Positions 1 through 11,565 of a DNA stretch of 11,565 nt are shown piece after piece. The notes beneath the pieces are model-generated. The model was not told where the DNA came from, searched no databases, and saw only the letters and a list, made by a program, of their open reading frames with translations. The stretch's first letter is position 1. Every line of letters begins with the position of its first letter. Source of the DNA: Candidatus Iainarchaeum sp. GTDB taxonomy: Archaea; Iainarchaeota; Iainarchaeia; Iainarchaeales; UBA10219. The stretch lies in contig JAGVWE010000001.1 in NCBI GenBank assembly GCA_018304425.1, positions 1-11,565 on the forward strand. The letters run 5' to 3'. The position numbers and the translations under genes were made by a program.

Positions 1-684
1 GCGGACAGGCTGCAGGTCGCGGCTCCATCGACGGGCCTGGCCATCCTGCCGACACAGGCACCGGAGCCAAGCGGCAACCAGCCCGAAGCGGCGCCGCCAG
101 CGGCTGCCCCCACCGGCCCGGAAATGAAGGGCTTGTTAAAGGACCCGGCCGGCAAAATGGGCCAGGACAACGCACCAGTAGTCTTCGTCGAGTACTCGGA
201 CTTCCAGTGCCCGTTCTGCGGGAGATGGTACAAGGACTCGGCAGCCCAGCTGAAAAGGGATTACGTTGACACCGGGAAAGTGCTGTTCCTGTACAAGGAC
301 TTTCCCCTGAGCTTCCACCCCAACGCCGGCCCAGCCGCCAACGCGGCGAGGTGCGCGGCCGAGCAAGGCAAGTTCTGGGAATTCCACGACAAGGTCTTTG
401 AAAACCAGGAAGCCCTGTCGGCCGACAACTACAAGAAGTGGGCCAAGGAACTGAAGCTCAACGCGGGCCAGTTCGACTCCTGCTTTGCTGGCAGCAAGTA
501 CAACAACCTCGTGCAGGCCAACTTCAGCGAGGGCTCGCGGTACGGCGTTTCCGGGACCCCGAGCTTCCTCGTGGGCAAGGCCGGCGGAAAAGCACAGCTC
601 GGGCCGCAAGGCTCCTATCCTTCCATCGTGGGCGCCATGCCGTACAGCGAGTTCAAGGACGCCATCGATGCGTTGCTGAAATAA
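1..684 (+). CDS. DsbA-family (thioredoxin-fold) thiol-disulfide oxidoreductase, 5'-truncated by the window
   Basis: Frame is open from base 1 (Pro/Ala-rich linker ADRLQVAAPS...AAPTGPE), so the true start lies upstream of the window. Contains VEYSDFQCPFC active site, KDFPLSFH, AARCAAEQGKFW and the cis-Pro loop GVSGTPSF. Confidence 0.93.
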   Translation, partial: ADRLQVAAPSTGLAILPTQAPEPSGNQPEAAPPAAAPTGPEMKGLLKDPAGKMGQDNAPVVFVEYSDFQCPFCGRWYKDSAAQLKRDYVDTGKVLFLYKDFPLSFHPNAGPAANAARCAAEQGKFWEFHDKVFENQEALSADNYKKWAKELKLNAGQFDSCFAGSKYNNLVQANFSEGSRYGVSGTPSFLVGKAGGKAQLGPQGSYPSIVGAMPYSEFKDAIDALLK

Positions 685-705
685 GCCTGGTTGGGGCTCA
701 ACGCC

Positions 706-1569
706 CTATCTTTTCACCAGCCAGTCGTTCAGGTCAGCCCATAGCCGCATGTCCCAGGGAGTGAACTCCTGGATGGCCTCCATGAAGGGAGTCGTGCCCC
801 CATAGGAGGCGATGGTCCAGCCGATGGCCAACAGGAACAAGCCCGCGACCAGGTTGTAGGGGCTGAGGCTGAGTTGCCTGCCAAACAGGTTCAGGGAAAA
901 CGGGGTGTTGACGGCGGCCACCATTTTTTGGAATCCTTTCCGTTCCGCCACCAGCGAGGCAGCCACCAGGGGCAGGACGACGCCGGCCGAGAAGGCGAGG
1001 AGCAGCAGGGCGCCCCAGGCCGGGCTGGCCATGCCGCCGGCCGCGAGCAGGATGCCGGCCAAGACCGCACCCATGCAGGGCGTCCAGCCAATGCCGAAAA
1101 GGGCGCCCAAGAAGAACATCGAGGCCAGGCCGCCGCTTGCCTTGACGAAGTGCTGCTGGAGCGTGGGCAGGTTTTTTCCCGCCAGCAGCCAGAGGCCCGC
1201 GAATGCCAGCAGGACTCCCGATACCAGGGCGAAAGGCTGCCGGTAGGCATTGAAGAGGGTGCCGAGGCTGCCGGCGACGAAGCCGAACACCGTGAAAGTG
1301 GCCATGAGGCCCAGGCCGAATAGGAGGCTGGCCTGGAAGGCCTTCTTCCGGGTGAAGGCCACGGTGAAAAACAGGGGCAGCAGGACGAAGCCGCAGGGCG
1401 AGAGAAAAGAGATTAAGCCGCCAAGGAAGGCGCCCAACAGGGTGACGCTCTGCATGAGCTGCTGGTTGTATTCAACGATTCTTTGGAGGCCGATTGGGAG
1501 CTCCTGGGCGAGCACGGGAACCGCGAGGAAGGAGAGGAAAACCAGCCAGACAAGCAATCGGGGAGGCAT
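706..1569 (-). CDS. ccdA: CcdA/DsbD-beta transmembrane electron transporter (cytochrome c biogenesis CcdA family) with N-terminal signal-like extension
   Basis: Both hallmark Cys motifs are present (GLISFLSPCGFVLLP and GIGWTPCMGAVLAGIL) with multiple hydrophobic helices. Start moved from 1653 to ATG 1569 (MPPRLLVWLV) to avoid overlapping the upstream gene, which stops at 1583. Confidence 0.88.
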   Translation of the reverse strand: MPPRLLVWLVFLSFLAVPVLAQELPIGLQRIVEYNQQLMQSVTLLGAFLGGLISFLSPCGFVLLPLFFTVAFTRKKAFQASLLFGLGLMATFTVFGFVAGSLGTLFNAYRQPFALVSGVLLAFAGLWLLAGKNLPTLQQHFVKASGGLASMFFLGALFGIGWTPCMGAVLAGILLAAGGMASPAWGALLLLAFSAGVVLPLVAASLVAERKGFQKMVAAVNTPFSLNLFGRQLSLSPYNLVAGLFLLAIGWTIASYGGTTPFMEAIQEFTPWDMRLWADLNDWLVKR

Positions 1570-1582
1570 GGAAACGCCTGGC

Positions 1583-2359
1583 CTATGAGAACCCGCAACG
1601 GGTTTCCCGGTCAAAGGAGTGGAAGGCGTCAAACTTTTTCTTGGCCGAGGCAAGGTGCCGGCCCGTGCCCTGGACCTGGACGGCGAACCGGTCTGCCTTC
1701 AGTTCCTCGTTTTCGAGGTCGGCCCTGATTTCATTGAAGGAAAAGACCGGCACCAGCCGTTTCACGAGCAGCGAGGAGAACTTGAACAACTGGTTGGAGT
1801 TCTTCAGGTGGCTGAGCTCGTGCAAGAGCACCGCCTCGGCTTCCTTCTTCGTCAGGAGCTCCAGGAGGCCGACCGAGACGAAGATGGTGGGCTGGAGGCC
1901 GGCCGTGGAAAAGGCGACCGGTTTTTGGTCGTCGACGAGCAGCACCTTCGGCTGGCGCATCCCGAGCCGGGAGGAGTAAAGGGAAACCATTCCGGCGATT
2001 TCTCCGTCTCCCAGTTCCCGCGCCTTCAGCATCCGGCGGTAGAGGAGGGGCGAGACCAAGTAACCCAGGACGATGGAGCCAAGCAAGGCGATGGGCAGCG
2101 CCTTGAAAACGGTTTTGGCCTGGCATGCCAGCATGCCGGCGCAGGGCACCGAAAGCGTGAAATAGACGAGGGGAAAGAGCACCGAGAAGAAGGTGGTGTA
2201 AATCCAGGCAGTCTTCTTTCGAACACTCAAATCGCTTCGCTTCAACTGGAGCAGCGCCACCACGGCGAGGAACAGGGCGCCAAGCGTGACCATCAGGCCA
2301 TCCCGGCTCTGGAGGAAGCCCAGCAGGCAGGTTCCCACCATGCAACCCATGTCAAACAT
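1583..2359 (-). CDS. BlaR1/MecR1-like membrane zinc metalloprotease (M56/M48), short form without penicillin-binding sensor domain
   Basis: Three N-terminal hydrophobic segments, then PVAFSTAG..PTIFVSVGLL, AVLLHELSHL (HEXXH) and ELKADRFA. Its ATG directly abuts the stop codon of the BlaI-family gene. Confidence 0.88.
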   Translation of the reverse strand: MFDMGCMVGTCLLGFLQSRDGLMVTLGALFLAVVALLQLKRSDLSVRKKTAWIYTTFFSVLFPLVYFTLSVPCAGMLACQAKTVFKALPIALLGSIVLGYLVSPLLYRRMLKARELGDGEIAGMVSLYSSRLGMRQPKVLLVDDQKPVAFSTAGLQPTIFVSVGLLELLTKKEAEAVLLHELSHLKNSNQLFKFSSLLVKRLVPVFSFNEIRADLENEELKADRFAVQVQGTGRHLASAKKKFDAFHSFDRETRCGFS

Positions 2360-2722
2360 TCACGCATGCCTCCCGAAGCGTTCGTTGAAGTAAGTGGTGG
2401 CCGTTGACCCAAACCGCTGAATCAGCTTGTTGACCGCGCTCTCCAGCATGTGCTCCTTGAACTTGGAGGGGGAGCCTGAGGCGAAGTAAATGTAGCGGTA
2501 GCCACCCCGGCAGGACTCGACCTTCCGCTCAACCAGGCCCTTCGAGTACAGCCGGTCGAGGATGACCGCGACGCTCGTCAAGGCGACTTTCCGCTTCCGC
2601 TTGACGAGTTTATGGGCTTCCTTGGTGCGCATGCCGTTCCCCCTGACCAGTACGTCAAGAACCACGGCCTCCAGGGGGCTAAGCGCAGCTTTTAATTCTT
2701 GACGTATCTCAATTACCTTCAT
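2360..2722 (-). CDS. BlaI/MecI/CopY-family winged-helix transcriptional repressor
   Basis: LSPLEAVVLDVL ... VALTSVAVILDRLYSKGLVER ... YRYIY and a C-terminal dimerisation helix (AVNKLIQRFG); 120 aa from ATG 2722 (TTG 2725 is an alternative); coupled to an HEXXH protease as in blaI/blaR. Confidence 0.9.
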   Translation of the reverse strand: MKVIEIRQELKAALSPLEAVVLDVLVRGNGMRTKEAHKLVKRKRKVALTSVAVILDRLYSKGLVERKVESCRGGYRYIYFASGSPSKFKEHMLESAVNKLIQRFGSTATTYFNERFGRHA

Positions 2723-2745
2723 CAATAAGGGGATGGGAAGTAAGG

Positions 2746-2753
2746 CTTAAAAA
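2746..2753 (-). promoter_or_regulatory. Putative archaeal TATA box for the repressor-protease-ccdA transcript (likely leaderless)
   Basis: Minus strand reads TTTTTAAG about 25 nt upstream of ATG 2722, with a pyrimidine-rich spacer and no Shine-Dalgarno. Confidence 0.6.
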
Positions 2754-2765
2754 CATAACCGATTA

Positions 2766-2796
2766 TACAAGTTGTAACATTTACAAGCATTTGTAA
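2766..2796. promoter_or_regulatory. Putative BlaI/CopY-type operator array (TACA...TGTA palindromes)
   Basis: TACAA-G-TTGTA (2766-2776) and TTACAA-GCAT-TTGTAA (2781-2796); the inner half-sites form a third dyad, TTGTAA-CAT-TTACAA (2772-2786). TACA/TGTA is the established half-site of BlaI, MecI and CopY operators, and the array is next to such a repressor gene. Confidence 0.75.
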
Positions 2797-2805
2797 TGGT
2801 ATGGA

Positions 2806-3543
2806 GTGGGAAACTTGAAGGAATCAGCTGAGACCCGGTTCTTCCTGGGCACCAAAAAAGGCTTTTACGCCCTCGTCATCATCACGGCGTTCATGCTGTT
2901 GAACAACATCCTGGCCACCACCCTGTTCGCGCAAGCCATTCAGGCAACTGCGGCCGGGGCCGGCGCCGGGCCCGCGGTCGTCGACGTCGGCAGCGGCTTG
3001 AATTATGGCCCGAAGACCACGCTCAAGCCCATGCCGTTGGCGCAGGACGAGCAGCCCACCTTCCAGGGCTTCAGGACCAGGGTAAAAGCCCTGCCCACCA
3101 TCAGCGAACTCGCCATCGCCCCCTCCAGCAGTGATTTAGTCCAGGACCTGGTCAACAACATCATCCCCACCGGCGTACCATGGTATAGCGACGAAGCCGG
3201 GGGAGTCACTTTTGACGACCCCATTTACGCGCAGCAGACTTGGGGCCCCTACGAGGAAACCATCCAGTTGAGCGGCGAAGACGAACAACGGTGGAGCACC
3301 ATCGTGAACTCGTTCACCTGCGATTATTGTTGTGGTTCCCCGCAGCAGCCCACCATCATCACGCGGTGCGGCTGCGCGCATGCGAAGGCCGCGCGGGGCA
3401 TGGCCAAGTGGTTCATCCAGAATCATGGCGATGAATTCTCGGACGAGGAAATCTACGGCGAAATGGCGCGATGGTACGCCCTGTGGTATCCGGGGCCCAC
3501 CGTCAAGCGGCTCGCCGAAGAAATAACCGGAACGCTATCATGA
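2806..3543 (+). CDS. Membrane-anchored hypothetical protein with CxxCC-x11-CxCxH motif (putative metal- or cluster-binding)
   Basis: 245-aa ORF with an N-terminal hydrophobic helix, an Ala/Gly linker and the motif TCDYCCGSPQQPTIITRCGCAH. First gene of the operon. Start is uncertain (GTG 2806 or TTG 2815). Confidence 0.8.
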   Translation: MGNLKESAETRFFLGTKKGFYALVIITAFMLLNNILATTLFAQAIQATAAGAGAGPAVVDVGSGLNYGPKTTLKPMPLAQDEQPTFQGFRTRVKALPTISELAIAPSSSDLVQDLVNNIIPTGVPWYSDEAGGVTFDDPIYAQQTWGPYEETIQLSGEDEQRWSTIVNSFTCDYCCGSPQQPTIITRCGCAHAKAARGMAKWFIQNHGDEFSDEEIYGEMARWYALWYPGPTVKRLAEEITGTLS

Positions 3544-3569
3544 TGATTAAACACAGGGAGGCAAAAAAA

Positions 3570-3794
3570 ATGGACAAGACAATGATCCTCACCATTCTGG
3601 TGGGAGCCATGGTATTGGTTTCGGCCCTGCAAACCATTCAATTGTTTGGGCTGAGCAACGCGCTGTCCGGCGCACAGGTTGGCGGAGGCTCGCTGAGCGC
3701 GGCGAAAGCCCCGGCAACCACGGCCAAGGCGCCCGTTGCGGTCAGCGGGGGCACGAGCCTAAAGAACCTGCCCAGCATGGTTGGCGGGTGTTAG
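3570..3794 (+). CDS. Small membrane-anchored protein (74 aa) ending in LPSMVGGC
   Basis: GGAGG at 3557-3561 precedes ATG 3570. One hydrophobic helix, an Ala/Gly/Pro/Thr linker and a terminal MVGGC. Fills the gap between its neighbours in the operon orientation. Confidence 0.8.
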   Translation: MDKTMILTILVGAMVLVSALQTIQLFGLSNALSGAQVGGGSLSAAKAPATTAKAPVAVSGGTSLKNLPSMVGGC

Positions 3795-3835
3795 GCCGGC
3801 AAGGAGCCAAGAGCCAGGGAAAGGATTGACAGGCA

Positions 3836-4987
3836 ATGACCAATGCAGGGAAACTCAAGCGGAACGCGTTGACGGTGTTGTTCGTGTTGCTGGTGGGGAT
3901 TAGCCTCCTCAACACCCTCCAATTGATGAACATCACGGGCAAGCTCACCGAAAAGGTGGTGGAAGCAAAAGAGCTGGCGCGGCCGGCCAAGATAGAGGTA
4001 ACCCTGCTTGTTTCAGGGGCTTGCAGCGCAAGTGACTGCTATGACATCGGCTTGTCCCTGGATGCCTTGAAGCAACAGAACGTGGAAGTCACGAAGGAAC
4101 AGACCCTCGCGCTGGAGTCAGCCGAAGGAAAGGCCCTGGCGGAAGCCAGTGGCGTCCAACGGCTGCCAGCCCTGGTCGTGTCCGTGGAACCGAAAAAGGC
4201 GGAACAACTGAAGAACTACTGGAAGCGCGTGAACGCCGTTGAACCCGCAGAAGGCAAGGCCGTTGTCCAGCCACCGGTGCCGCCCTACTTTGACCTCGCC
4301 CAGGGAAAAGTGGCGGGACTGGTAAAGCTCGTCTCGCTGACGGATGACGCCTGCACGCAATGCCTCAAATTGGATGACGTTGCCGCAATCCTCGAGGGAG
4401 CCGGGATAAAAATCGTGGACAAACAAGTGCAGGCCTATGATTCCCCCGAAGGAAAGGCATCCATTGAAGGGTTCGGCGTGACCCGGATTCCGGCCCTCCT
4501 CCTCTCCAAGGACGTAATGGTTTACGAGGGCATGGCCGAGCAGTTGAAGGCCCTGAACTCGGTTGAAAAAAACGGCTATTACGCCGTCCACTCCACTATT
4601 CCGCCTTACCGCGAGGTTGCCAGCAACCAGGTCAAGGGCCTGGTGGAAGTCATTTACCTGACGGACGAGTCCTGCAAGGAATGCTTTGACGTCCAGGTGA
4701 ACAAGCAAGTCCTCCAACGGTTTGGCTTGGTCTTTGCGAGCGAGAAGACCGTTGACATTGCGTCAAAGGAAGGCAAGGAACTCGTGAACCGCTACAACCT
4801 GACAAAGGTTCCGGCCTTTCTGATGTCCGGTGAGGCCAAGGAATACGCTTCCCTCAACAGCGTGTGGAAACAGGTGGGCACGGTCGAGGGCAGCGGCTGG
4901 TATGTTTTCAGGAAGCCCGAAGTGTTCGGTGCCTACAAGGACCTGGAGAAAAAATTGGTGGTCACGCCGCAGCAGGGCGGCCAGTAA
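3836..4987 (+). CDS. Membrane-anchored protein with three tandem thioredoxin/glutaredoxin-like repeats
   Basis: N-terminal TM helix, then three ~107-110-aa repeats with CSASDC, CTQC and CKEC, each followed by S.EGK and a cis-Pro-like RLPA/RIPA/KVPA. Confidence 0.8.
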   Translation: MTNAGKLKRNALTVLFVLLVGISLLNTLQLMNITGKLTEKVVEAKELARPAKIEVTLLVSGACSASDCYDIGLSLDALKQQNVEVTKEQTLALESAEGKALAEASGVQRLPALVVSVEPKKAEQLKNYWKRVNAVEPAEGKAVVQPPVPPYFDLAQGKVAGLVKLVSLTDDACTQCLKLDDVAAILEGAGIKIVDKQVQAYDSPEGKASIEGFGVTRIPALLLSKDVMVYEGMAEQLKALNSVEKNGYYAVHSTIPPYREVASNQVKGLVEVIYLTDESCKECFDVQVNKQVLQRFGLVFASEKTVDIASKEGKELVNRYNLTKVPAFLMSGEAKEYASLNSVWKQVGTVEGSGWYVFRKPEVFGAYKDLEKKLVVTPQQGGQ

Positions 4988-5020
4988 GAGTCCAGCCACT
5001 GCCATTGTTTGGGGAGCGAA

Positions 5021-5794
5021 ATGAGCGAAAAAGAAGGATGGGTGCTCTACGGCTTCGTGGTTTTCGCGGTCGTGGCGCTGGGAATCGGCTTGCTGGCTTT
5101 GGCCAACATCCTGGGTCTGAACCAAGCGAGCCCGGACGATGAAAGTCAAGCCACGCAGGAGCGGGACGAGGCCATGGGCCGGTTGACCATGACGTCCTTT
5201 GACCGGGATATGGCCCTGAAACTCATGGACAAGGACTCCGATGGCAAATGCGATGCCTGCGGCATGCCGGTCGAGATGTGCATCGAGTCCGGCCAGCTGG
5301 AATGCAACATGGGACCGGATGGCGCGTCCAAGATGGGGTTGCTGAACTCCCAGCACGTCCACGCGGACTGGAAGGTTTACGTCAACGGAAAGGCGCTCGA
5401 CTTGTCGGACAAAACCCATGGAGGACGCATGCAGGCCGGGCTTCCCGTGAGCAGTTTCATGCACGTCGACGAAGGCGCGCCAGCGCCTGAACTGCCGGGC
5501 GACGTCCTGCACATGCACGCCAAGAACGTGCCCCTCTGGCTGTGGTTCGAAAGCCTGGGCATGGAGTTCTCCAGGGACTGCCTGGAACTGAGCGCAACCC
5601 CCAAGTTGGGGGCAGGCGAAAAATACTGCAACGGCAACGGAAAGACCCTGAAGTTCTACGTGAACGGCCAGCCCAACGATGGATTCGAGAAATACGTGTT
5701 CAGGGACGGGGACAAGCTGCTGATTTCCTACGGGGATGAAACGGACTTGTCAGCGCAACTGGGTTCCATTACTAGCTTCGGTGGACGCCATTGA
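5021..5794 (+). CDS. Membrane-anchored His/Cys/Met-rich hypothetical protein (CxxCGM plus HxH domain)
   Basis: GGGGAG precedes ATG 5021. TM helix, DKDSDGKCDACGM...C...C, then HVHADW, MHV, LHMHA and VNGQP..FEKYVFRDGDKLLI. Paralogous C-terminal domain in 7595-8173. Confidence 0.8.
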   Translation: MSEKEGWVLYGFVVFAVVALGIGLLALANILGLNQASPDDESQATQERDEAMGRLTMTSFDRDMALKLMDKDSDGKCDACGMPVEMCIESGQLECNMGPDGASKMGLLNSQHVHADWKVYVNGKALDLSDKTHGGRMQAGLPVSSFMHVDEGAPAPELPGDVLHMHAKNVPLWLWFESLGMEFSRDCLELSATPKLGAGEKYCNGNGKTLKFYVNGQPNDGFEKYVFRDGDKLLISYGDETDLSAQLGSITSFGGRH

Positions 5795-5802
5795 GGGAAC
5801 GC

Positions 5803-6210
5803 ATGGACGCAAAAACGAGGATTGAAAGCTTTGTCAGCTCCGCTTCGGGGGCATTGGCAACCATTGGCTCGAGCTGGCAGGTCTGCCACAACATCTGCCT
5901 GGCGGCATTGGCCTTGCTGGCCTCCATCGGCATTGTCATAACCGGGATGCCGCTGCTTTTCCTGTTCGAATACAACCTTTATTTCTGGGGGGCCGCCGTG
6001 CTGTTGCTGGCGCTGACGCTCACCATGTTTCTCAGGAACCCGGCCTGTGGCTCGAAAAACGTCTTGGCGTTCAACGTGGGTGTGGTCATCGCCGGAACTC
6101 CTGGCCAATTCCTCGGAGGCTTTCAGCCCCTGTTCTGGGGGGTTGGAGGCGTTATTGCGTTGACGGGAATCGTGGGCTGGTGGCTGAAGCGGAAAAAGGG
6201 AGAAAAATGA
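5803..6210 (+). CDS. Small 4-TM membrane protein with CxxxC in the first helix (MerC/MerT-like architecture)
   Basis: About four hydrophobic helices, VCHNIC near the N-terminus, a further Cys in a loop (NPACG) and a basic tail. ATG 5803 follows GAGGGA; stop overlaps the next start (ATGA). The Mer-like label is by architecture only. Confidence 0.72.
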   Translation: MDAKTRIESFVSSASGALATIGSSWQVCHNICLAALALLASIGIVITGMPLLFLFEYNLYFWGAAVLLLALTLTMFLRNPACGSKNVLAFNVGVVIAGTPGQFLGGFQPLFWGVGGVIALTGIVGWWLKRKKGEK

Positions 6211-6611
6211 ACTGGCCAGCATGGGCTTTGATTTCGTTGGTTGCGGGCGTGCTCCTCGCGGGATGCGTAGCCGGCGAAGGCAAGCCGGCTGCCGGGAGAG
6301 GAGAAACAGGCTTGAAGACGCTGTCCGTCGAAGAATTAAGGCAAGGGCTTGAAAACAAGGACTTTTTCCTGGTGGACGTGCACGTCCCCGAACAGGAACA
6401 CTTCCCGCAAACCGATGCATTCATTCCCTATGATGCGATTGAGTCAAACCTGGGGAGCCTCCCAAAGGACAAGAACGCCAAGATTGTGCTGTATTGCAGG
6501 ACCGACCGAATGAGCGGAATCGCGGGAGAAAAACTAGTGCGCTTGGGGTACACCAACGTCTACCATGTCGTGGGCGGAAAAGTGGCCTGGGACGGGATGG
6601 CCAGCGACTAG
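6207..6611 (+). CDS. Single-domain rhodanese-like sulfurtransferase, predicted lipoprotein
   Basis: Signal peptide with lipobox LLAGC; FLVDVH.PE, IVLYCRTDRMS, LGYTNVYHVVGG..AW. ATGA coupling with the upstream gene fixes the start at 6207. Confidence 0.88.
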   Translation: MNWPAWALISLVAGVLLAGCVAGEGKPAAGRGETGLKTLSVEELRQGLENKDFFLVDVHVPEQEHFPQTDAFIPYDAIESNLGSLPKDKNAKIVLYCRTDRMSGIAGEKLVRLGYTNVYHVVGGKVAWDGMASD

Positions 6612-6624
6612 GCAGGGGAAAGGC

Positions 6625-7131
6625 ATGCGTTCACAAGCGAACACGGTTTGGCTGGCGGCAAAGGAAGTCCTTTCCCACACGAAGTACCTGTGGCTCTTTG
6701 TTTTGGCCAGCACGTTCTTCGCCCTCCTGTTCATTGTCTACCCCGTGCTCGCCACGCCGGGCAACGACCTGGCTTTCCAGTTGTCGATTACGCCTTGGTG
6801 GGGCCTGCTGTTAATCGGTTTCCTCGCGTTCGCTTCCGGGCTCCTGGTCACCCTACAGGCCTACATCTTCAGAAGGCTCAAGGCCCTGCCCGTAAAGGAA
6901 ACCGGGACAACGCTTGTCGGGGGGGCTTCGGCTTTCCTTGCCAACGTCTTCGCCTCGGCTTCCTGCACGGCCTGCGTTTCGGCCCTTTTCTCCTTTCTCG
7001 GCATCGGCACCATCATTTTCCTGTTGAATTACCGCTGGGAAATCGTGGGCGGCAGCATCGTGCTGACGCTTCTTGCCATTTACTTCGCATCCAAACGCAT
7101 CAACAACCATTGCATGGAATGCGGGGTTTGA
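6625..7131 (+). CDS. 4-TM hypothetical membrane protein with intramembrane CxxC and C-terminal CxxC
   Basis: Hydrophobic helices, ASCTACVSAL in helix 3 and a terminal HCMECGV. ATG 6625 lies 13 nt after the rhodanese stop, behind GGGGAAAGG. Confidence 0.8.
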   Translation: MRSQANTVWLAAKEVLSHTKYLWLFVLASTFFALLFIVYPVLATPGNDLAFQLSITPWWGLLLIGFLAFASGLLVTLQAYIFRRLKALPVKETGTTLVGGASAFLANVFASASCTACVSALFSFLGIGTIIFLLNYRWEIVGGSIVLTLLAIYFASKRINNHCMECGV

Positions 7132-7141
7132 GGGAACGAAA

Positions 7142-7594
7142 ATGAAAGACGTCGTCAAGTGGTTCACGAGGATGGGCGTGGTTCCGCGGGCACTGATTAT
7201 TGGGTTGACGATGTTCGTGGCCTTCGGCGTGCCAACCGCCCTGGTGCCGTTGCCCCTGATTGCCTACAAGCGCATGATTCCCGCGACCGTTCTGGACTAT
7301 TTGCTGCTGGCCGCGGTTTCGGGCCTCGTGGGCCTCTACGCTTCCTATCGCCTGCGAAAAAACGCGCCTGAAAAAGGCGGCGACATGAAGGCGTTTGGGG
7401 CAACGATTGCCGGGCTATTCTCGTTCGCTTGCCCCATCTGCAGCGTGCTGCTGGTCTCCTTGCTGGGCAGCGCCTTTGTTTTGACTTACTTCGAGCCGGT
7501 ACGGCATCCGCTGGGTGTCGCAGCCGTCGGCGCATTGGTTTACCTGGTTTACGTGGAAAGAAAAAATTGCAGGGCCTGCAAGGAAGGGAATTGA
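7142..7594 (+). CDS. 4-TM hypothetical membrane protein with intramembrane CxxC and C-terminal CxxC
   Basis: GVPTALVP, FACPICSVLL in helix 3 and a terminal NCRACKEGN. ATG 7142 follows GAGGGA. Same layout as the preceding gene. Confidence 0.8.
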   Translation: MKDVVKWFTRMGVVPRALIIGLTMFVAFGVPTALVPLPLIAYKRMIPATVLDYLLLAAVSGLVGLYASYRLRKNAPEKGGDMKAFGATIAGLFSFACPICSVLLVSLLGSAFVLTYFEPVRHPLGVAAVGALVYLVYVERKNCRACKEGN

Positions 7595-8173
7595 ATGGAC
7601 GAAGCAAGCGAAGAATTAGTGGCGGAATTGACCAAGAAACAAAAGAAGAACCTCGAAAAAAAACGGAGGCAGAAAGAGGAACAAGCAGTGGAACAGAAAA
7701 AAGCCGGGGCGGAAAAACTGAAAAAGACGGCCCTGGCCTCCCTGGCCCTGGTGGCCGGCGCTTTCCTCGTTTACTTCGTTGCCATGGCCCCCAAAGTGGA
7801 GGGGCCCTACACGCCCGGCCCCGTGCACTGGCATTCGACCCTTTCCATGACCGCATGCGGCCAACCCATTCCCTTGCCCCGCGCCCCGCCGGGCAGGATG
7901 CTGGGGCCCGAAATAAGGCACCTCCACGACAACGATGACAAGATCCACATCGAGGCACAGGTCCAGCGAAAGGAGGACATCATGGTGGAAGCCTTCCTGG
8001 CGGACATCGGCGTGGCGTTCAACGAAAAACAACTGGGAAACTATGGCGAGGGAAACCAGTGCCCGAATGGAAAAGCCGGCAAGGTCGCATTCACCGTCAA
8101 CGGCAAGCCAAGCACGGAATACGAGAAGTACGTGATGCAGGACGGCGACAAAATCGAGATACGGTTTGAATAA
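7595..8173 (+). CDS. Membrane-anchored HxH-domain hypothetical protein (paralogue of 5021-5794)
   Basis: Lys/Glu-rich N-terminus, one TM helix, VHWHS, RHLHD..KIHIE and VNGKP..YEKYVMQDGDKIEI. Its ATG immediately follows the previous TGA. Confidence 0.82.
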   Translation: MDEASEELVAELTKKQKKNLEKKRRQKEEQAVEQKKAGAEKLKKTALASLALVAGAFLVYFVAMAPKVEGPYTPGPVHWHSTLSMTACGQPIPLPRAPPGRMLGPEIRHLHDNDDKIHIEAQVQRKEDIMVEAFLADIGVAFNEKQLGNYGEGNQCPNGKAGKVAFTVNGKPSTEYEKYVMQDGDKIEIRFE

Positions 8174-8197
8174 TTGCGAGTATGCGGAGGGGTAATC

Positions 8198-8683
8198 ATG
8201 GGGAGCAAAATAATCTGGATCGGATTAGTGGCGCTGGCCCTGGTGTTGAGCGGCTGCGCGCAGGCGGAACAAAAACAACAGGCAGTGGCTGGCCCACAGC
8301 AGGGCTACGACCTCCATGTGGACGCCAAGCACTGGCTGAAAGACAAACGGGAAACGGTTCACCACTGGTGCAAGCCCACCAAGGAAAAGCTGTTTGAGTG
8401 CCTGTTGTTTGACTCGGATGCGGCCAACGCCAACATCGTGGGAACGGAAGTCATCGTGGAGAACGGCGTCTGGGAAACCTTTGACGACGAGGAAAAAGGC
8501 CGCTGGCATGACCATAAAACCGAAATCGTGGAAGCAGAGGCCACTCTGCCGGGCATGCCGGAGGCCGAGGCCCAAAAATGGGTCGAAGCCCTGATGCAGA
8601 CCCATGGACGCGTGATTTACTTCTGGAACTACCCGAGGGACGCCTATCCCATTGGCCGGCCTTTCATGGACTCCGACCACTAG
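8198..8683 (+). CDS. DUF1264/OBAP-like protein, predicted lipoprotein
   Basis: GGAGG precedes ATG 8198; lipobox VLSGC. The pattern HHWC...ECLLFD...IVGTEVIV...EEKGRWHDH..E matches my recollection of DUF1264 (HHYC..QCLLYD..LIGVEY..EEK..WH.H). Confidence 0.78.
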   Translation: MGSKIIWIGLVALALVLSGCAQAEQKQQAVAGPQQGYDLHVDAKHWLKDKRETVHHWCKPTKEKLFECLLFDSDAANANIVGTEVIVENGVWETFDDEEKGRWHDHKTEIVEAEATLPGMPEAEAQKWVEALMQTHGRVIYFWNYPRDAYPIGRPFMDSDH

Positions 8684-8740
8684 GTTTAAGGGCTTTGGAC
8701 AAGGCATCCCCTTAAGCCTTTTTCTTTCCTTTGTCCTGCC

Positions 8741-9559
8741 ATGCGCGTCCTCAAGGCCAATGGGGAATCAGAGGAATTCGACGCCGAAAAGGTGCGGCGG
8801 GCCTGCCTCCGGGCCGGGGCCTCCGACCGGATGGCCGAAGAAATCACGCAAAGCGTGCGGGCGCGGGCCTATGACGGCATCCCCACCCATGAAATCTATG
8901 CCATGGCCTACAAGCTGCTCAAGCAAGCCAAGACCGGGGCCGAGCACCGGTTCAGCTTGAAGAAGGCCATGATGGAGTTGGGCCCGGAAGGACACGCCTT
9001 CGAGGACTTCGTTGCCCGCGTGTTCCAGGCAAACGGCTACCAGGCGCGCACGCGGCAAATCGTGAAAGGGAAATGCGTCTCCCACGAAGTGGACGTGGTC
9101 GCGGAAAACGCCGGGGAAAAAGTCCTGGTGGAATGCAAGTTCCACCACCGGCCGGGCATTGAGTGCCACGTGCAAAACCCGTTGTACGTGTGGGCGCGGT
9201 TCCAGGACGTGGTCGAGGGCGCGAAATCAAATGGGGAACGGCCGTTCACGCAGGCCTGGCTTGCGACCAACACGAGGTTGAGCTCGGACGCGGTTGCCTA
9301 CGCGGAATGCGTGGGGTTGAAGGTCCTGGGCTGGAAATATCCTTCCGTCAACGGCCTGGAAGCCCTGATTGAGCAAAAGCGATTGTATCCGGTCACGGTG
9401 TTGACGGGCCTCACTTCCCACGAAAAGGACCGGCTGGTGGGAGCGGACATCCTGTTGTTAAGGGAACTCGTGCAAGCCAACGCCGCGGGCCTGGCCGCGA
9501 AAACCGGCCTGCCCGCACCCCGAATAGAGGGCCTTAAAGCCCAAGTCCACTGGTTATAG
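8741..9559 (+). CDS. ATP-cone domain fused to an Mrr-like PD-(D/E)xK restriction endonuclease domain
   Basis: N-terminal MRVLKANGESEEFDAEKVRRAC (ATP-cone), then GHAFEDFVARVF, EVDVVA...VECK and LATNTRLSSDA..YA..VGLKVLGW (Mrr_cat-like), and a short helical tail. Confidence 0.85.
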   Translation: MRVLKANGESEEFDAEKVRRACLRAGASDRMAEEITQSVRARAYDGIPTHEIYAMAYKLLKQAKTGAEHRFSLKKAMMELGPEGHAFEDFVARVFQANGYQARTRQIVKGKCVSHEVDVVAENAGEKVLVECKFHHRPGIECHVQNPLYVWARFQDVVEGAKSNGERPFTQAWLATNTRLSSDAVAYAECVGLKVLGWKYPSVNGLEALIEQKRLYPVTVLTGLTSHEKDRLVGADILLLRELVQANAAGLAAKTGLPAPRIEGLKAQVHWL

Positions 9560-9612
9560 CGTGCGTTAGCACGCGCGGACCTGCACACCCGCAGGTGCAA
9601 GCCTGTGCAGGC
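9559..9612. terminator. Cluster of short hairpins between convergent genes; possible bidirectional terminator or 3'-end stabiliser
   Basis: GCGTGC-GTTA-GCACGC (9559-9574), ACCTGC-ACACCC-GCAGGT (9579-9596) and GCCT-GTGC-AGGC (9601-9612). No convincing U-tract. Confidence 0.35.
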
Positions 9613-9624
9613 CTACACCGGGTT

Positions 9625-11121
9625 TCAGGGCCTTACCTCTAGCAGGGCCATCATGCCGGACTCCAGGTGCTCGGGGATGTGGCAGTGCAGCATCCATTGG
9701 CCCGGGTTGGAGAAGTCGACGAGCAGGTCCACGGTGCTGCCGGCGGGAACCAGGACCGAGTCCTTCCAGGCCAGGTTGTCGTTCGGTTTTCCGTCCACGC
9801 TGGCCACGAGGAAGCGGTTGCCATGCAAGTGGAGGGGGTGCTGCATGGGATGCGCGGAAGTGGCGAGGTTGTGGATGCGGATTTTTTGGATGCTGCCCGC
9901 CCTGGCTTCAAATCGCACGTCCATGTTTTCTTTGCCGGTTTTCCTGTCGCGCAGGATCCATTTCGTGTTCTCGGGAGTTGAAGCGGAGTTCATGGCGGCC
10001 ATCCTGCCTTCCTCCCACTCGATGGGTTCGGGGGCTCCGCCCAGGGCGTGCGGCGTCATGTCCATGCCCTGCATTTCAACGTCGAGTTCCAGTTCGAGGT
10101 CAGGTTGCTGGTCCAGCAAGGCCTTGAAGGGGGCCAGGGAAGACTGCAGGACCGGGTTGGCATGGGGGGAAGAAAAATCGGTGGCAGGGGTTGGCGCGGA
10201 CGCAGCCTCGACTTCGAGGACGCCCAGGGTGTAAGAGGCGTCGGGCGTGGCGTTGAGTAACTTGAAGGAACCGGCTTTTTCGAGGGCCAGCTCCACGATG
10301 GCGCGCTCCGAGGGCCCGAGGACCACGCCCTCGACCAGGGCTTCGCGTTCGGGTTTGCCGGAATCCAGGCCCACGAGTTTCAGGGGATGGCCTTCGACCG
10401 TGAAATGGAAGGGCCGCGCGTTGGCCGCGTTGACGAGGTAAAACCGCAGGGTTTGGCCTTTCCCAGCCTTCAGGCGGTAGTTGTTTTGCCAGTTGACGAA
10501 CAGGGTGTTGCCATAGCGGCCCATCAAGGCATGCGTGGCCTGGTCCTCGTTGAAACCGGCCATGCCTCCCGGCTCGAGGAGGAGGTCGTCCAAGAACAGG
10601 ACTTCCTCACGGTCGACTGGGTTGTAGTAGACTGGGTCTCGGGGTTCCACGAGGATGGCGCCATACAAGCCGAGCTCCTGTTGCCGGTCTTCGCGTAGGT
10701 GCGGGTGGTACCAGTAGATGCCTTCGTCCGGGAAAGAGAGTTCGTAGCGGAAGGTTTCGCCTGGCTTGACTGGCTCCTGTGTAACGCCTGGCACGCCGTC
10801 AAAGGCATGGGCGACTCTCACGCCGTGCCAGTGCACGGTCGTGTCGTATGGCAAGCTGTTCCGAAAATCAATGGAAACCCGGCTACCCTGTCTCACCTTG
10901 AGGAGCGGCCCGGGCAGCATGCCGTTGTAGGCGTAGAGGGTCTCCGGTTTGCCGGCCATGGTTTGGGTGACGGCGGACGCGGTAAGGGAGTAGACGGAGC
11001 CATCTGCGAGGTCAATGGCTTGCATGGGCCTGGCATCCGGGGCCTGCCTGGCGACGCAGCCGGCGGCAAGCGAGAACAGGAACAGCAGGACCAGAACGCG
11101 GTCACCATGCACACAGGGCAT
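9625..11121 (-). CDS. Three-domain multicopper oxidase (laccase/CueO-like), predicted lipoprotein
   Basis: All four copper motifs are present: HWHG, WYHPH, HPLHLHG and HCHIPEHLESGM. Lipobox LAAGC. Start placed at ATG 11121, about 24 nt downstream of a TTTTTAA box; 11145 and 11160 are alternatives. Confidence 0.93.
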   Translation of the reverse strand: MPCVHGDRVLVLLFLFSLAAGCVARQAPDARPMQAIDLADGSVYSLTASAVTQTMAGKPETLYAYNGMLPGPLLKVRQGSRVSIDFRNSLPYDTTVHWHGVRVAHAFDGVPGVTQEPVKPGETFRYELSFPDEGIYWYHPHLREDRQQELGLYGAILVEPRDPVYYNPVDREEVLFLDDLLLEPGGMAGFNEDQATHALMGRYGNTLFVNWQNNYRLKAGKGQTLRFYLVNAANARPFHFTVEGHPLKLVGLDSGKPEREALVEGVVLGPSERAIVELALEKAGSFKLLNATPDASYTLGVLEVEAASAPTPATDFSSPHANPVLQSSLAPFKALLDQQPDLELELDVEMQGMDMTPHALGGAPEPIEWEEGRMAAMNSASTPENTKWILRDRKTGKENMDVRFEARAGSIQKIRIHNLATSAHPMQHPLHLHGNRFLVASVDGKPNDNLAWKDSVLVPAGSTVDLLVDFSNPGQWMLHCHIPEHLESGMMALLEVRP

Positions 11122-11143
11122 GCAGGGAGTAGGAGGGAAAACC

Positions 11144-11151
11144 ATTAAAAA
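11144..11151 (-). promoter_or_regulatory. Putative archaeal TATA box for the multicopper oxidase gene
   Basis: Minus strand reads TTTTTAAT about 24 nt before ATG 11121 with a pyrimidine-rich spacer; same geometry as the repressor promoter. Confidence 0.5.
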
Positions 11152-11167
11152 TTGCAGCAAATGACAA

Positions 11168-11394: not shown

Positions 11395-11565
11395 ATGGAT
11401 TTAAGCGATTACACGAAGCGGAGCCAGAAAGCCGCGTATAGCGCTCCTGGCGCGCGCCAAAAGAAGTGCATGCAGTGCGGCAAAGTCCTTGAAAACGACG
11501 GCTCGCACCTCTACTTCCAGCGGTTCTGCAGCCAGCTTTGCAAGGAAAAATACATGGAATTGTAG
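11395..11565 (+). CDS. Small (56 aa) treble-clef/TRASH-like zinc-finger protein
   Basis: Hand translation: MDLSDYTKRSQKAAYSAPGARQKKCMQCGKVLENDGSHLYFQRFCSQLCKEKYMEL*. CxxCG...FCSxxC pattern; absent from the ORF track, probably because of its short length. Confidence 0.8.
   Translation: MDLSDYTKRSQKAAYSAPGARQKKCMQCGKVLENDGSHLYFQRFCSQLCKEKYMEL

Follow-up and report, generated by a model that had tools for sequence, protein, structure and literature searches.

What purpose could be served by a compact array of genes for small surface proteins, most of them from unnamed families and all of them carrying cysteine or histidine motifs, that is set opposite a penicillinase-type repressor in an archaeon? 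This question is raised by the first 11,565 nucleotides of contig JAGVWE010000001.1 of Candidatus Iainarchaeum sp. (here, the window; G+C content, 56 to 63%), in which ten plus-strand genes, denoted g1 to g10, are divergent from minus-strand genes for a BlaI-like repressor, a membrane zinc protease and the electron conduit CcdA. The cluster is real and is conserved in many archaea of the DPANN group (Diapherotrites, Parvarchaeota, Aenigmarchaeota, Nanoarchaeota, as well as Nanohaloarchaeota), as a set of surface Cys/His proteins under a BlaI-type repressor, and it probably handles copper or thiol stress. The reading favored here, to which a probability of roughly 0.55 is assigned, is that of a CcdA-fed, BlaI-switched surface thiol and histidine system for a thiophilic metal, likeliest copper, or for thiol damage.

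The divergent arrangement had been proposed in a first-pass annotation of the window, and analysis of the open reading frames (ORFs) together with Pfam searches confirms it. The minus strand encodes the repressor (positions 2360 to 2725), the protease (1583 to 2359) and CcdA (706 to 1653, with ATG 1569 as the likely start), and the divergent intergenic region is 80 nt long. The ten plus-strand ORFs are packed tightly between positions 2806 and 8683; with homology-guided starts, the successive gaps from g1 to g10 are 26, 41, 21, -4, -4, 13, 10, 0 and 0 to 24 nt, so that the gap range of -4 to 41 nt given by the annotation is borne out. The further claim that every operon product has a transmembrane (TM) helix or a lipobox and carries Cys or His motifs holds for 10/10 products: g1 to g5 and g7 to g9 each contain a hydrophobic helix, g6 (LLAGC) and g10 (LSGC) have a lipobox-like motif instead, and all ten carry Cys and/or His motifs. 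A Pfam family above the cut-off was detected in three of the ten, namely g3 (a marginal match to the thioredoxin-like HyaE), g6 and g10, and NCBIfam yielded nothing significant for the remaining operon products, in agreement with the description of the effectors as mostly unnamed families.

Conserved synteny had been set beforehand as a test of the proposed system. The search for related loci was anchored on an alignment of g1, with one genome per species, and produced 80 loci from 81 confirmed g1 relatives, all in DPANN-type metagenome-assembled genomes (MAGs), a few of which give more than one locus. When the window proteins were compared by phmmer with all ORFs of these 80 loci, relatives of g1 were found in 80, of g2 in 77, of g3 in 71, of g4 in 58, of g8 in 50, of g9 in 47 and of g5 in 40; blaI and the protease gene (labeled blaR in these counts) were each found in 34, ccdA in 19, dsbA in 10, g6 in 5, and g7, g10 and the multicopper oxidase gene in 2 each. 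Among the 29 complete loci, which extend at least 6 kb on both sides, the corresponding numbers are 29 for g2, 28 each for g3 and g4, 25 for g9, 23 for g8 and 22 for g5, then 19 each for blaI and blaR and 10 for ccdA, and finally 4 for dsbA, 2 for g6, 1 each for g10 and the multicopper oxidase gene, and 0 for an eleventh plus-strand gene that follows g10 in the window. Where a locus contains enough sequence, g2 lies within 700 bp after g1 (72/76), g3 within 2 kb (65/68) and g4 within 5 kb (38/45). The usual order is blaR<-blaI, then (g8-like)-g1-g2-g3-(NTF2-like)-g4/g9-g5. The core order is thus kept across the 80 loci, and because the arrangement recurs so often, it is not due to chance. The core, comprising g1-g2-g3, g4/g9, g5 and g8-like genes, is a conserved syntenic module; the rhodanese g6, g7, the DUF1264 protein g10, DsbA and the multicopper oxidase are occasional accessories. 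The Cys/His motifs of the window proteins are invariant or nearly so in the relatives, so that neither of the two sequence-level grounds for refutation named in the annotation, scattered homologues and unconserved motifs, applies. The archaeal origin proposed for the window agrees with its nearest relatives, which come from Aenigmatarchaeota, Woesearchaeota and Nanoarchaeota. Of the co-occurrences that the annotation named for testing, that with a blaI/blaR pair is found in 19/29 complete loci, but dsbA and the multicopper oxidase gene are rare.

One further family accompanies the core: an NTF2/SnoaL-like, membrane-anchored protein of 161 aa (for example, locus L007, positions 4962 to 5444) is encoded after g3 in 58 loci, in 78 copies, with weak matches to SnoaL_2 (E = 5.8e-5) and to the NCBIfam Rv0361 C-terminal domain (E = 2.7e-6). 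Profile searches of the six-frame translation of the window detected neither this family nor the winged helix-turn-helix (wHTH) family DUF7343 nor any of three unnamed families that recur among the neighbors.

The signature family of the cluster is g1 (2806 to 3543, plus strand), a membrane-anchored extracytoplasmic protein without a Pfam match, in which a C-terminal helical domain contains the motif CxxCC...CGCxH; C172, C175, C176, C188, C190 and H192 are kept in 81/81 proteins. At E <= 0.001, 269 relatives were found, and the 120 listed show 54 to 100% identity, with no Pfam domain in any; those listed come from Aenigmarchaeota, Woesearchaeota, Nanoarchaeota or otherwise from DPANN, and their identity across orders is 54 to 70%. 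The structural model of g1 is a confident one (predicted local distance difference test score [pLDDT], 84.5; predicted template modeling score [pTM], 0.72), yet it matches no fold in the PDB at E <= 0.001; nor did the g1 sequence profile retrieve anything from the PDB at E < 0.05. Its neighbor g2 (3570 to 3794, plus strand) is a membrane-anchored peptide of 74 aa in which a variable Ser/Ala/Gly linker leads to the C-terminus ...LPSMVGGC; P68, M70, V71, G72, G73 and C74 are invariant in 23 sequences, and the terminal cysteine is kept in 78/78.

The relationship between these two proteins became apparent from a profile search against 1.84 billion representatives, which returned 241 g1 relatives at E <= 0.001, 28 of them at E <= 1e-30; most of those scoring worse than 1e-30 match the C-terminal domain alone. 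Among the best 150 of the 241, both CxxCC and CGCxH are present in 128, 105 end in GGC (96 in VGGC), and 95 carry the Cys motifs and the GGC tail together. Because the fused tail, ...LPxMVGGC, is the invariant C-terminus of g2, g1 plus g2 is the split form of a single protein that is fused elsewhere. The named members of the fused kind belong to Micrarchaeia, Candidatus Burarchaeum and one Desulfobacterales MAG. A predicted complex of the g1 ectodomain with g2 weakly favors the pairing, with a score of 0.41 against 0.02 for the best control, at least 33% of contacts agreeing between runs and a partner pLDDT of at least 48; in the calibration of this test, the mark was reached by 116/157 solved complexes and 2/215 mismatched pairs, and at scores of 0.60 or lower by 18/157 solved complexes and by both of the mismatches. 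Among distant g1 relatives, 53/56 lack a Pfam family and the others contain one rhodanese, one FKBP and one weak PliI domain; no Pfam family recurs among 20 of the distant relatives even at E <= 10.

The source of reducing power is indicated by ccdA and g3. The former encodes a CcdA-type membrane conduit (DsbD_TM, 50.1 bits; cut-off, 27.1; E = 2.8e-13), is read in the same direction as blaI and the protease gene, with its likely start 13 nt after the protease stop codon, and specifies two TM cysteines, one per half, both kept in 20/20 relatives. The latter (3836 to 4987, plus strand) encodes a membrane anchor followed by three thioredoxin-like repeats (Cx4C, CxxC and CxxC), with six cysteines that are invariant in 23 sequences and kept in 70 or 71 of the 71 relatives from the loci; the g3 homologues are DPANN proteins for which the precomputed Pfam domains are of thioredoxin and glutaredoxin types. 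The link from CcdA to a thioredoxin-like protein, which the first-pass annotation had brought in from other systems, is supported by a natural fusion, P0027, which joins a CcdA-like half (30% identity to the window CcdA, E = 2e-22) to two g3-type repeats (38% identity to g3, E = 8e-46). In three loci (L064, L067 and L068), ccdA lies directly after g3. The g3 protein is the presumed acceptor of CcdA electrons. Genes resembling that of thioredoxin reductase (10 loci) and genes for glutaredoxin (9 loci) give a hint of the cytoplasmic side of such a path.

The other core products combine membrane helices with potential metal ligands. The g4 protein (5009 to 5794, plus strand) consists of a TM anchor, a four-Cys knuckle (DGKCDxCGM...C...C) and a domain with the pattern HxH...H...HxH; in the motif alignment, H116, H118, H152, H168 and H170 are kept in 52/52 relatives and the four knuckle cysteines in 43 or 44 of 52. 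It shares its C-terminal domain (E = 1e-9) with g9 (7595 to 8173, plus strand), a TM anchor followed by a His domain (HWH...HxH...H) in which H78, H80, H109, H111, H118 and C156 are kept in 39/39. The g4 model (pLDDT, 73.1) has no PDB fold match at E <= 0.001, and its profile found nothing in the PDB at E < 0.05; apart from one g1 match to a row of NrfF/CcmH proteins, all matches of g1 and g4 in the Protein Atlas are to unnamed clusters from archaea or the Candidate Phyla Radiation (CPR). Many g9 homologues contain an N-terminal, C2H2-like segment, KCExCxxxFxxxxxLxxHxxxKH, ahead of the TM helix (for example, L035, 14506 to 15126, and L023, 12390 to 13091), in a position where the window g9 is instead rich in Lys and Glu; such a cytoplasmic zinc finger on surface His-cluster proteins could point to signaling. 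The three-TM protein g5 (5791 to 6210, plus strand) contains QVCHxxC in TM1 and a GMP motif, with C32, H33 and C36 kept in 39/39. In the four-TM protein g8 (7073 to 7594, likely start ATG 7142, plus strand), TM3 opens with CPxC and the C-terminus carries CxxC, with C120 and C123 kept in 50/50, and g7 (6565 to 7131, likely start ATG 6625, plus strand), also with four TM helices, has CxxC in TM3 and again at the C-terminus; the two are weak paralogues (E = 0.14) with aligned Cys pairs. A four-TM, g8-like domain is fused in front of g1 in 27 ORFs, and from the positive-inside pattern we read both g8 Cys pairs as lying on the cytoplasmic side and the g1 domain as lying outside. One g8-like ORF (L008, 3352 to 3864) ends in HCHTAEHLESGMMATF, which is similar to the copper-site motif that multicopper oxidases have at the C-terminus (1/21 members matches Cu-oxidase_2, E = 0.0014); this end may be a remnant of, or a read-through into, an oxidase fragment. 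The two lipoproteins of the operon are g6 (6180 to 6611, likely start ATG 6207, plus strand), a rhodanese (E = 5.9e-10) with the active-site loop YCRTDRMS, and g10 (8174 to 8683, plus strand), which belongs to DUF1264 (E = 2.6e-24). Across the libraries searched (Pfam, PDB and the literature), the core families lack any described relative.

Control of the operon was considered next to these effectors. The 121-aa repressor belongs to the BlaI/MecI/CopY winged-helix family, with residues 15 to 104 matching Penicillinase_R (PF03965) at 41.4 bits (cut-off, 22.6; E = 2e-10). Against the CopY equivalog TIGR02698 (CopY_TcrY) it scores 20.3 bits, with a cut-off of 121.95, its single cysteine (C72) is kept in 2/34 relatives, and it contains no CxCx4-5CxC site. 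Direct copper sensing by the repressor in the manner of CopY is therefore ruled out, given the missing Cys cluster and a CopY score far below the cut-off. The protease, of 258 aa with three TM helices and HELSH at residues 180 to 184, is encoded by a gene that abuts blaI; it matches Peptidase_M48 above the cut-off (37.9 bits against 20.3, E = 2.1e-9) and Peptidase_M56 slightly below it (29.1 bits against 31, E = 7.4e-7). It resembles the N-terminal part of BlaR1. H180 and H184 are kept in 32/32 relatives, C73, a cysteine placed by prediction in the outer loop that joins TM2 to TM3, is kept in 26/32, and the gene is adjacent to blaI in 31/34 related loci. The enzyme had been called BlaR-like, and that description stands insofar as it is an HExxH membrane enzyme encoded beside the repressor. 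Full BlaR1 identity is ruled out: the protein is of M48/M56 type, scores 17.1 bits against NCBIfam blaR1_generic (cut-off, 400) and has no extracellular penicillin-binding sensor domain, ending at 258 aa where its relatives measure 217 to 262 aa. By analogy with the action of BlaR1 on BlaI, we infer that it cleaves the repressor. With no CopY Cys site in the repressor and no recognizable sensor domain in the protease, the phrase "complete sensor-to-effector module," used in the first-pass annotation, was an overstatement.

The existence of a repressor system of the BlaI/CopY type is supported by its operator. Two operator-like dyads occupy positions 2766 to 2795 of the divergent promoter region (no strand assigned), TACAAGTTGTA at 2766 to 2776 and TACAAGCATTTGTA at 2782 to 2795, downstream of an A/T-rich, TATA-like stretch at approximately 2746 to 2754. 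The pattern TACA-N3-6-TGTA has 3 matches in the window, with 0.06 expected and 0/200 shuffles reaching 3, and two of the three fall into the 80-nt intergenic region. In the related loci, a strict dyad is present within 200 bp upstream of blaI in 15/34, compared with a mean of 0.6/34 (maximum, 3 in 200 trials) for random windows from the same loci, which corresponds to 3.7 versus 0.10 per kb; with one mismatch allowed, the count rises to 33/34, compared with 5.5/34 (maximum, 11) in random windows. Loci with blaI have the strict dyad upstream of the g8/g1 block in 14/34 cases and the relaxed one in 31/34, compared with 4/35 and 15/35, respectively, for loci without blaI/blaR. Because the dyad is frequent where blaI is present and scarcer where it is absent, the operator travels with the repressor. 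The accessible part of a report on CopR/CopY (PMC7253601) gives TACANNTGTA as the operator core of these regulators and also ascribes it to BlaI and MecI. A scan for bacterial-type sigma-70 promoters and terminators, applied here to an archaeal host, found 1 promoter-like site versus 2.6 expected and 19 terminator-like sites versus 16. Separately, a perfect 11-nt inverted repeat (TACGTCAAGAA and TTCTTGACGTA, 34 nt apart; positions 2651 to 2661 and 2696 to 2706) is located within the coding region of the blaI-like gene, in its 5' part.

Many loci are provided with a different regulator. BlaI/BlaR is found in 35/80 loci, a membrane-bound wHTH regulator in 28/80, both in 4 and neither in 21/80, the last figure being affected by the truncation of many related loci. 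The wHTH protein (DUF7343, MarR-like, E = 1.8e-8) has two TM helices and is encoded directly upstream of g8/g1 on the same strand, mostly in loci without blaI/blaR (for example, L029, 6973 to 7473; L047, 7363 to 7821; and L026, 14556 to 15038). A pair of cysteines in the loop between its helices is kept in 26/30 and 28/30 proteins, respectively, which suggests that the signal is sensed by outside thiols; the protein appears to be an alternative sensor of the one-component kind for this operon.

The case for copper comes from the neighborhood and from the ligands. A copper-type P1B ATPase that includes a YHS domain (TIGR01511, 625.7 bits; cut-off, 397) is encoded in 13/80 loci, within the operon in L003 and L006 and directly upstream of wHTH-g8/g1 in L016 and L046, often beside a PadR regulator whose representative has a weak TRASH-domain match. 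Four loci encode a lipoprotein cupredoxin, which in three of the four lies between g1 and g2 or g3, and a multicopper oxidase is encoded in 2 loci in addition to the window, directly after g3 in L025. Together, a copper-type ATPase, a cupredoxin or a multicopper oxidase is found in 19/80 loci; as a rough inference, chance would place approximately one copA in the 1.07 Mb that the loci comprise, if each genome measures 1 Mb and has a single copy. The ligand sets, namely Cys, His and Met in membrane helices, the M-x-G-G-C tail and the HxH clusters, would fit Cu(I) and Cu(II). Support for the copper role that the first-pass annotation had proposed is contextual and comes from part of the loci; the remaining 61/80 contain no such gene, and the repressor lacks the CopY site. 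Elsewhere in the group, the accessible part of one study (PMC10936187) reports a nosZ-like gene with a CuA site in the majority of the DPANN genomes that it covered from oxygen-deficient zones.

From these components, the favored reading can be put together as follows. The repressor would sit on the dyads over the transcription start of the operon until the protease reads a surface signal, perhaps with its outer-loop cysteine or with partners that the operon encodes, and then cleaves the repressor. CcdA would move electrons from a cytoplasmic thioredoxin to the triple thioredoxin-like g3, which would keep the outer cysteines reduced, that is, the Cys5His domain of g1, the swinging Gly-Gly-Cys tail of g2 and other surface cysteines. 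In their reduced state, these thiols would act with g4 and g9, which contain the His clusters, and with g5, g7 and g8 in the membrane (CHxxC, CPxC) to bind and relay a thiophilic metal, Cu(I) being the likeliest; alternatively, the end use might be the repair of surface thiols damaged by metal or oxidant.

Several observations weigh against this reading. On the regulatory side, the repressor has no CopY-type CxC...CxC site and the protease no sensor domain, neither regulator is found in 21/80 loci, and the window dyads have N3 and N6 spacers, although N5 and N6 dominate in the related loci. The window has no counterpart of the NTF2-like gene located after g3 in 58 loci. No copper gene is in reach in 61/80 loci, and the g6-like cluster is about as frequent as the copper ATPase (13 loci). 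The His clusters and Cys4 knuckles suit zinc as well as copper, and the Gly-Gly-Cys arm resembles sulfur carriers; the high identity of g1 is more readily expected of a constitutive core function than of a response to occasional stress. Finally, the fold and profile searches gave no relative to which a chemistry could be anchored.

A bolder version of the same idea, which we advance tentatively as about a one-in-four proposition in spirit, gives the central role to the split protein. In it, g1 and g2 would form a swinging-arm cysteine machine in which the Cys5His domain is served by the tethered or fused Gly-Gly-Cys tail and is wired through the g8-like protein, g5 and the CcdA-fed g3; it would act as a DPANN-wide surface relay of Cu(I) or sulfane sulfur, possibly drawn from the environment or from a host cell, under either the BlaI switch or the Cys-pair wHTH regulator.

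Among the explanations that compete with the favored reading, general maintenance of surface disulfides survives best, although it seems rather unlikely. The cluster would then be a DPANN equivalent of Dsb/VKOR-type folding and isomerization, with g1/g2 as a non-thioredoxin oxidoreductase, the g8-like protein as its membrane partner and no metal specificity. The high conservation and wide distribution of g1 speak for it, as do CcdA, the three thioredoxin repeats and the DsbA-like neighbor, and a distant g1 relative, P0265, is fused to an FKBP prolyl isomerase. It also draws on a weak fold likeness between the helical domain of g1 and CcmH (2hl7; probability, 0.60; target TM-score, 0.62 over 81 columns), but at E = 1.7 this is below significance; CcmH/NrfF is the one resemblance that recurs in the g1 searches, and the NrfF/CcmH row of the Protein Atlas gives a TM-score of 0.29 by query and 0.45 by row, and Pfam CcmH does not match g1. 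Tight repression by BlaI or the wHTH protein suggests an inducible function, Dsb systems feature neither invariant HxH...H...HxH clusters nor CHxxC and CPxC motifs within the membrane, and the copper-gene neighbors would go unexplained.

Somewhat less probable is a sulfur-carrier relay, in which the Gly-Gly-Cys tail would be a swinging arm that delivers covalently attached sulfur, as persulfide or thiosulfonate, to the Cys5His domain or collects it from there, loaded by the rhodanese and reset by g3/CcdA, for the uptake or detoxification of reactive sulfur on the surface of the cell. Reactive cysteines on flexible, Gly-rich C-terminal tails, which can reach into the active site of a partner, are known from the GGCGG arm of SoxY and the shuttle tails of Erv2-type enzymes; g2 likewise has a Gly-rich tail with a reactive-type cysteine, and g1 also contains a CGC motif. 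The invariance of this terminal cysteine (78/78) and the GGC end of 105 of the best 150 g1 relatives fit such a role, as do the rhodanese lipoprotein g6 in the window operon, a distant g1-type protein (P0210) fused to a rhodanese (E = 6.7e-13) and a g6-like cluster in 13 loci, 5 of whose 14 members are matched by g6 and whose representative has no Pfam match. Unlike SoxY and Erv2, however, the tail has a single terminal cysteine and is carried by an anchored peptide or by a Cys5His domain, and no sequence or fold relation to either protein was found, including no SoxY/SoxZ fold or Pfam match. Moreover, the rhodanese itself is found by phmmer in only 5/80 loci and 2/29 complete loci, genes of sulfur oxidation or assimilation are absent from the recurrent neighbors, and the His-cluster proteins and the copper ATPase and cupredoxin neighbors are left unexplained.

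Handling of Hg, Cd or Ag in the manner of Mer systems, with capture by outer cysteines and passage inward through CxxC membrane proteins to cytoplasmic Cys pairs, is improbable. The proteins g7 and g8 are, like MerT and MerF, small membrane proteins that have one Cys pair within a TM helix and another at the cytoplasmic end; in g8-type proteins, as in MerF and MerT, the second pair lies at a cytoplasmic C-terminus. The profile matches are at chance level: the best PDB match of the g8 profile is MerF (2m67, E = 0.077, with nothing at E < 0.05), and Pfam MerT matches 1/21 g8-type members (E = 0.01). Further, the proteins here have four TM helices, no mer genes are nearby, MerA, MerB, MerP and MerR are absent from the recurrent neighbors (a MerA model is only a weak secondary match of the thioredoxin-reductase-like gene), and a wide, strongly conserved presence in groundwater DPANN disfavors a mercury-specific trait. 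Membership in the Mer-like and SoxY-like families is ruled out by the absence of significant similarity. That there is no system at all, with chance neighbors and motifs incidental to small membrane proteins, is scarcely credible: the rarity of g6, g7, g10, DsbA and the multicopper oxidase in related loci and the unremarkable sigma-70/terminator scan would be compatible with it, but the core order recurs in 80 loci with invariant motifs, g1-g2, g8-g1 and CcdA-g3 fusions exist, and the operator co-varies with blaI.

How does the favored system relate to those already described? According to the accessible parts of two reports (PMC10907172; 10.64898/2026.05.22.727170), ScsABCD of Salmonella, Proteus and Caulobacter is an inducible envelope system, linked to copper and thiol redox, that combines a DsbD/CcdA-type reductase, a DsbA/G-like protein and a tethered thioredoxin-like protein. 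The window is similar in having CcdA, the membrane-tethered, thioredoxin-like g3 and a DsbA-like neighbor. However, the searches found kinship solely at the level of generic folds (thioredoxin and DsbD_TM). In addition, g3 consists of three repeats, g1/g2, g4/g9, g5 and g8 have no Scs counterpart, and regulation falls to BlaI with its protease or to a wHTH protein of the membrane. The DPANN hosts are single-membrane archaea, unlike the bacteria with Scs. Compared with CcdA-ResA/CcsX, the cluster likewise has a CcdA with both TM cysteines beside an anchored CxxC thioredoxin-like protein, and a natural fusion of the two; it differs in the three-repeat acceptor and the novel clients, and no CcsA/CcsB or Ccm proteins are encoded among the neighbors. 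The best reading is that the cluster would be a functional analogue of Scs and of CcdA-thioredoxin envelope systems, with effectors from unrelated families.

On the regulatory side, the likeness to BlaI/BlaR1, MecI/MecR1 and CopY consists of a Penicillinase_R repressor encoded beside an HExxH membrane protease and of TACA...TGTA dyads in the divergent promoter. The differences are that the 258-aa protease, below the M56 cut-off, has no penicillin-binding sensor of the BlaR1/MecR1 kind, that the repressor lacks the Cys cluster of CopY, that the operator spacer is mostly 5 to 6 nt (3 and 6 in the window) compared with 2 nt in bacterial BlaI/CopY operators, and that the target is neither a beta-lactamase nor a copA operon and the host is archaeal. 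Literature searches returned no description of the cluster, of its motifs or of an archaeal BlaI/BlaR pair, and the use of BlaI/BlaR logic by archaea thus appears to be undescribed.

Because DPANN genomes are tiny and the cells live attached to others, a multigene surface system that is retained in them likely matters. Four or five families with invariant Cys/His sites and with no Pfam family or PDB relative offer targets for structural and chemical work, the recognizable operator lets archaeal BlaI/BlaR logic be tested, and the proposed electron path from thioredoxin through CcdA and g3 to g1/g2 is concrete and testable. Were copper the substrate, the cluster would account for the supply or protection of extracellular copper proteins in DPANN archaea.

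The genes at the edges of the window stand apart from the cluster. At its start, a DsbA-like, thioredoxin-fold protein (1 to 684, plus strand; 5' end outside the window) matches Thioredoxin_4 (E = 6.5e-33) and DSBA (E = 3.8e-15) and contains CPFC at residues 70 to 73, with C70 and C73 kept in 9/9 relatives. Toward its end, a three-domain multicopper oxidase (9625 to 11160, minus strand) matches Cu-oxidase_3 (E = 5.6e-34), Cu-oxidase_2 (E = 2.9e-31) and Cu-oxidase (E = 3.6e-12), has a lipobox-like motif, LAAGC, and scores 159 bits against the CueO equivalog, below the threshold of 525. Both genes are convergent to the cluster and hence belong to separate transcription units, and no dyad lies within approximately 390 nt of the oxidase start. 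The annotation was correct in that the two flank the locus, but they are neighbors in 10/80 and 2/80 loci, respectively, and their membership in the regulon, with such rarity and with no operator near the oxidase, is not supported.

The eleventh plus-strand gene (8741 to 9559) begins 57 nt after g10 and encodes a cytoplasmic protein of 272 aa composed of an ATP-cone, an Mrr_cat domain (restriction endonuclease fold) and an AF1548-like C-terminal part, as identified by Pfam; it is absent from 29/29 complete related loci, and a gene with the ATP-cone only recurs in 6 other loci. A small ORF at the 3' edge (11395 to 11565, plus strand, 3' open) specifies two CxxC-type pairs, with sub-threshold Pfam matches to treble-clef/zinc-ribbon families such as DUF2116, and contains the third dyad of the window (TACA-N6-TGTA, 11551 to 11564). 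Scans of the window for RNA genes detected neither tRNAs nor Rfam families. In the related loci, a gene for prolipoprotein diacylglyceryl transferase (Lgt), of bacterial type (E = 8e-77), lies near the cluster in 5 DPANN loci, including L005, L010 and L013; together with the lipobox-like L-x-G-C motifs (g6, g10 and the multicopper oxidase in the window), this suggests bacterial-style lipoprotein anchoring in these archaea. Finally, in L018 (positions 5 to 2626), a gene for a type II/IV secretion ATPase (T2SSE), a family found in 5 loci, is split by a LAGLIDADG intein.

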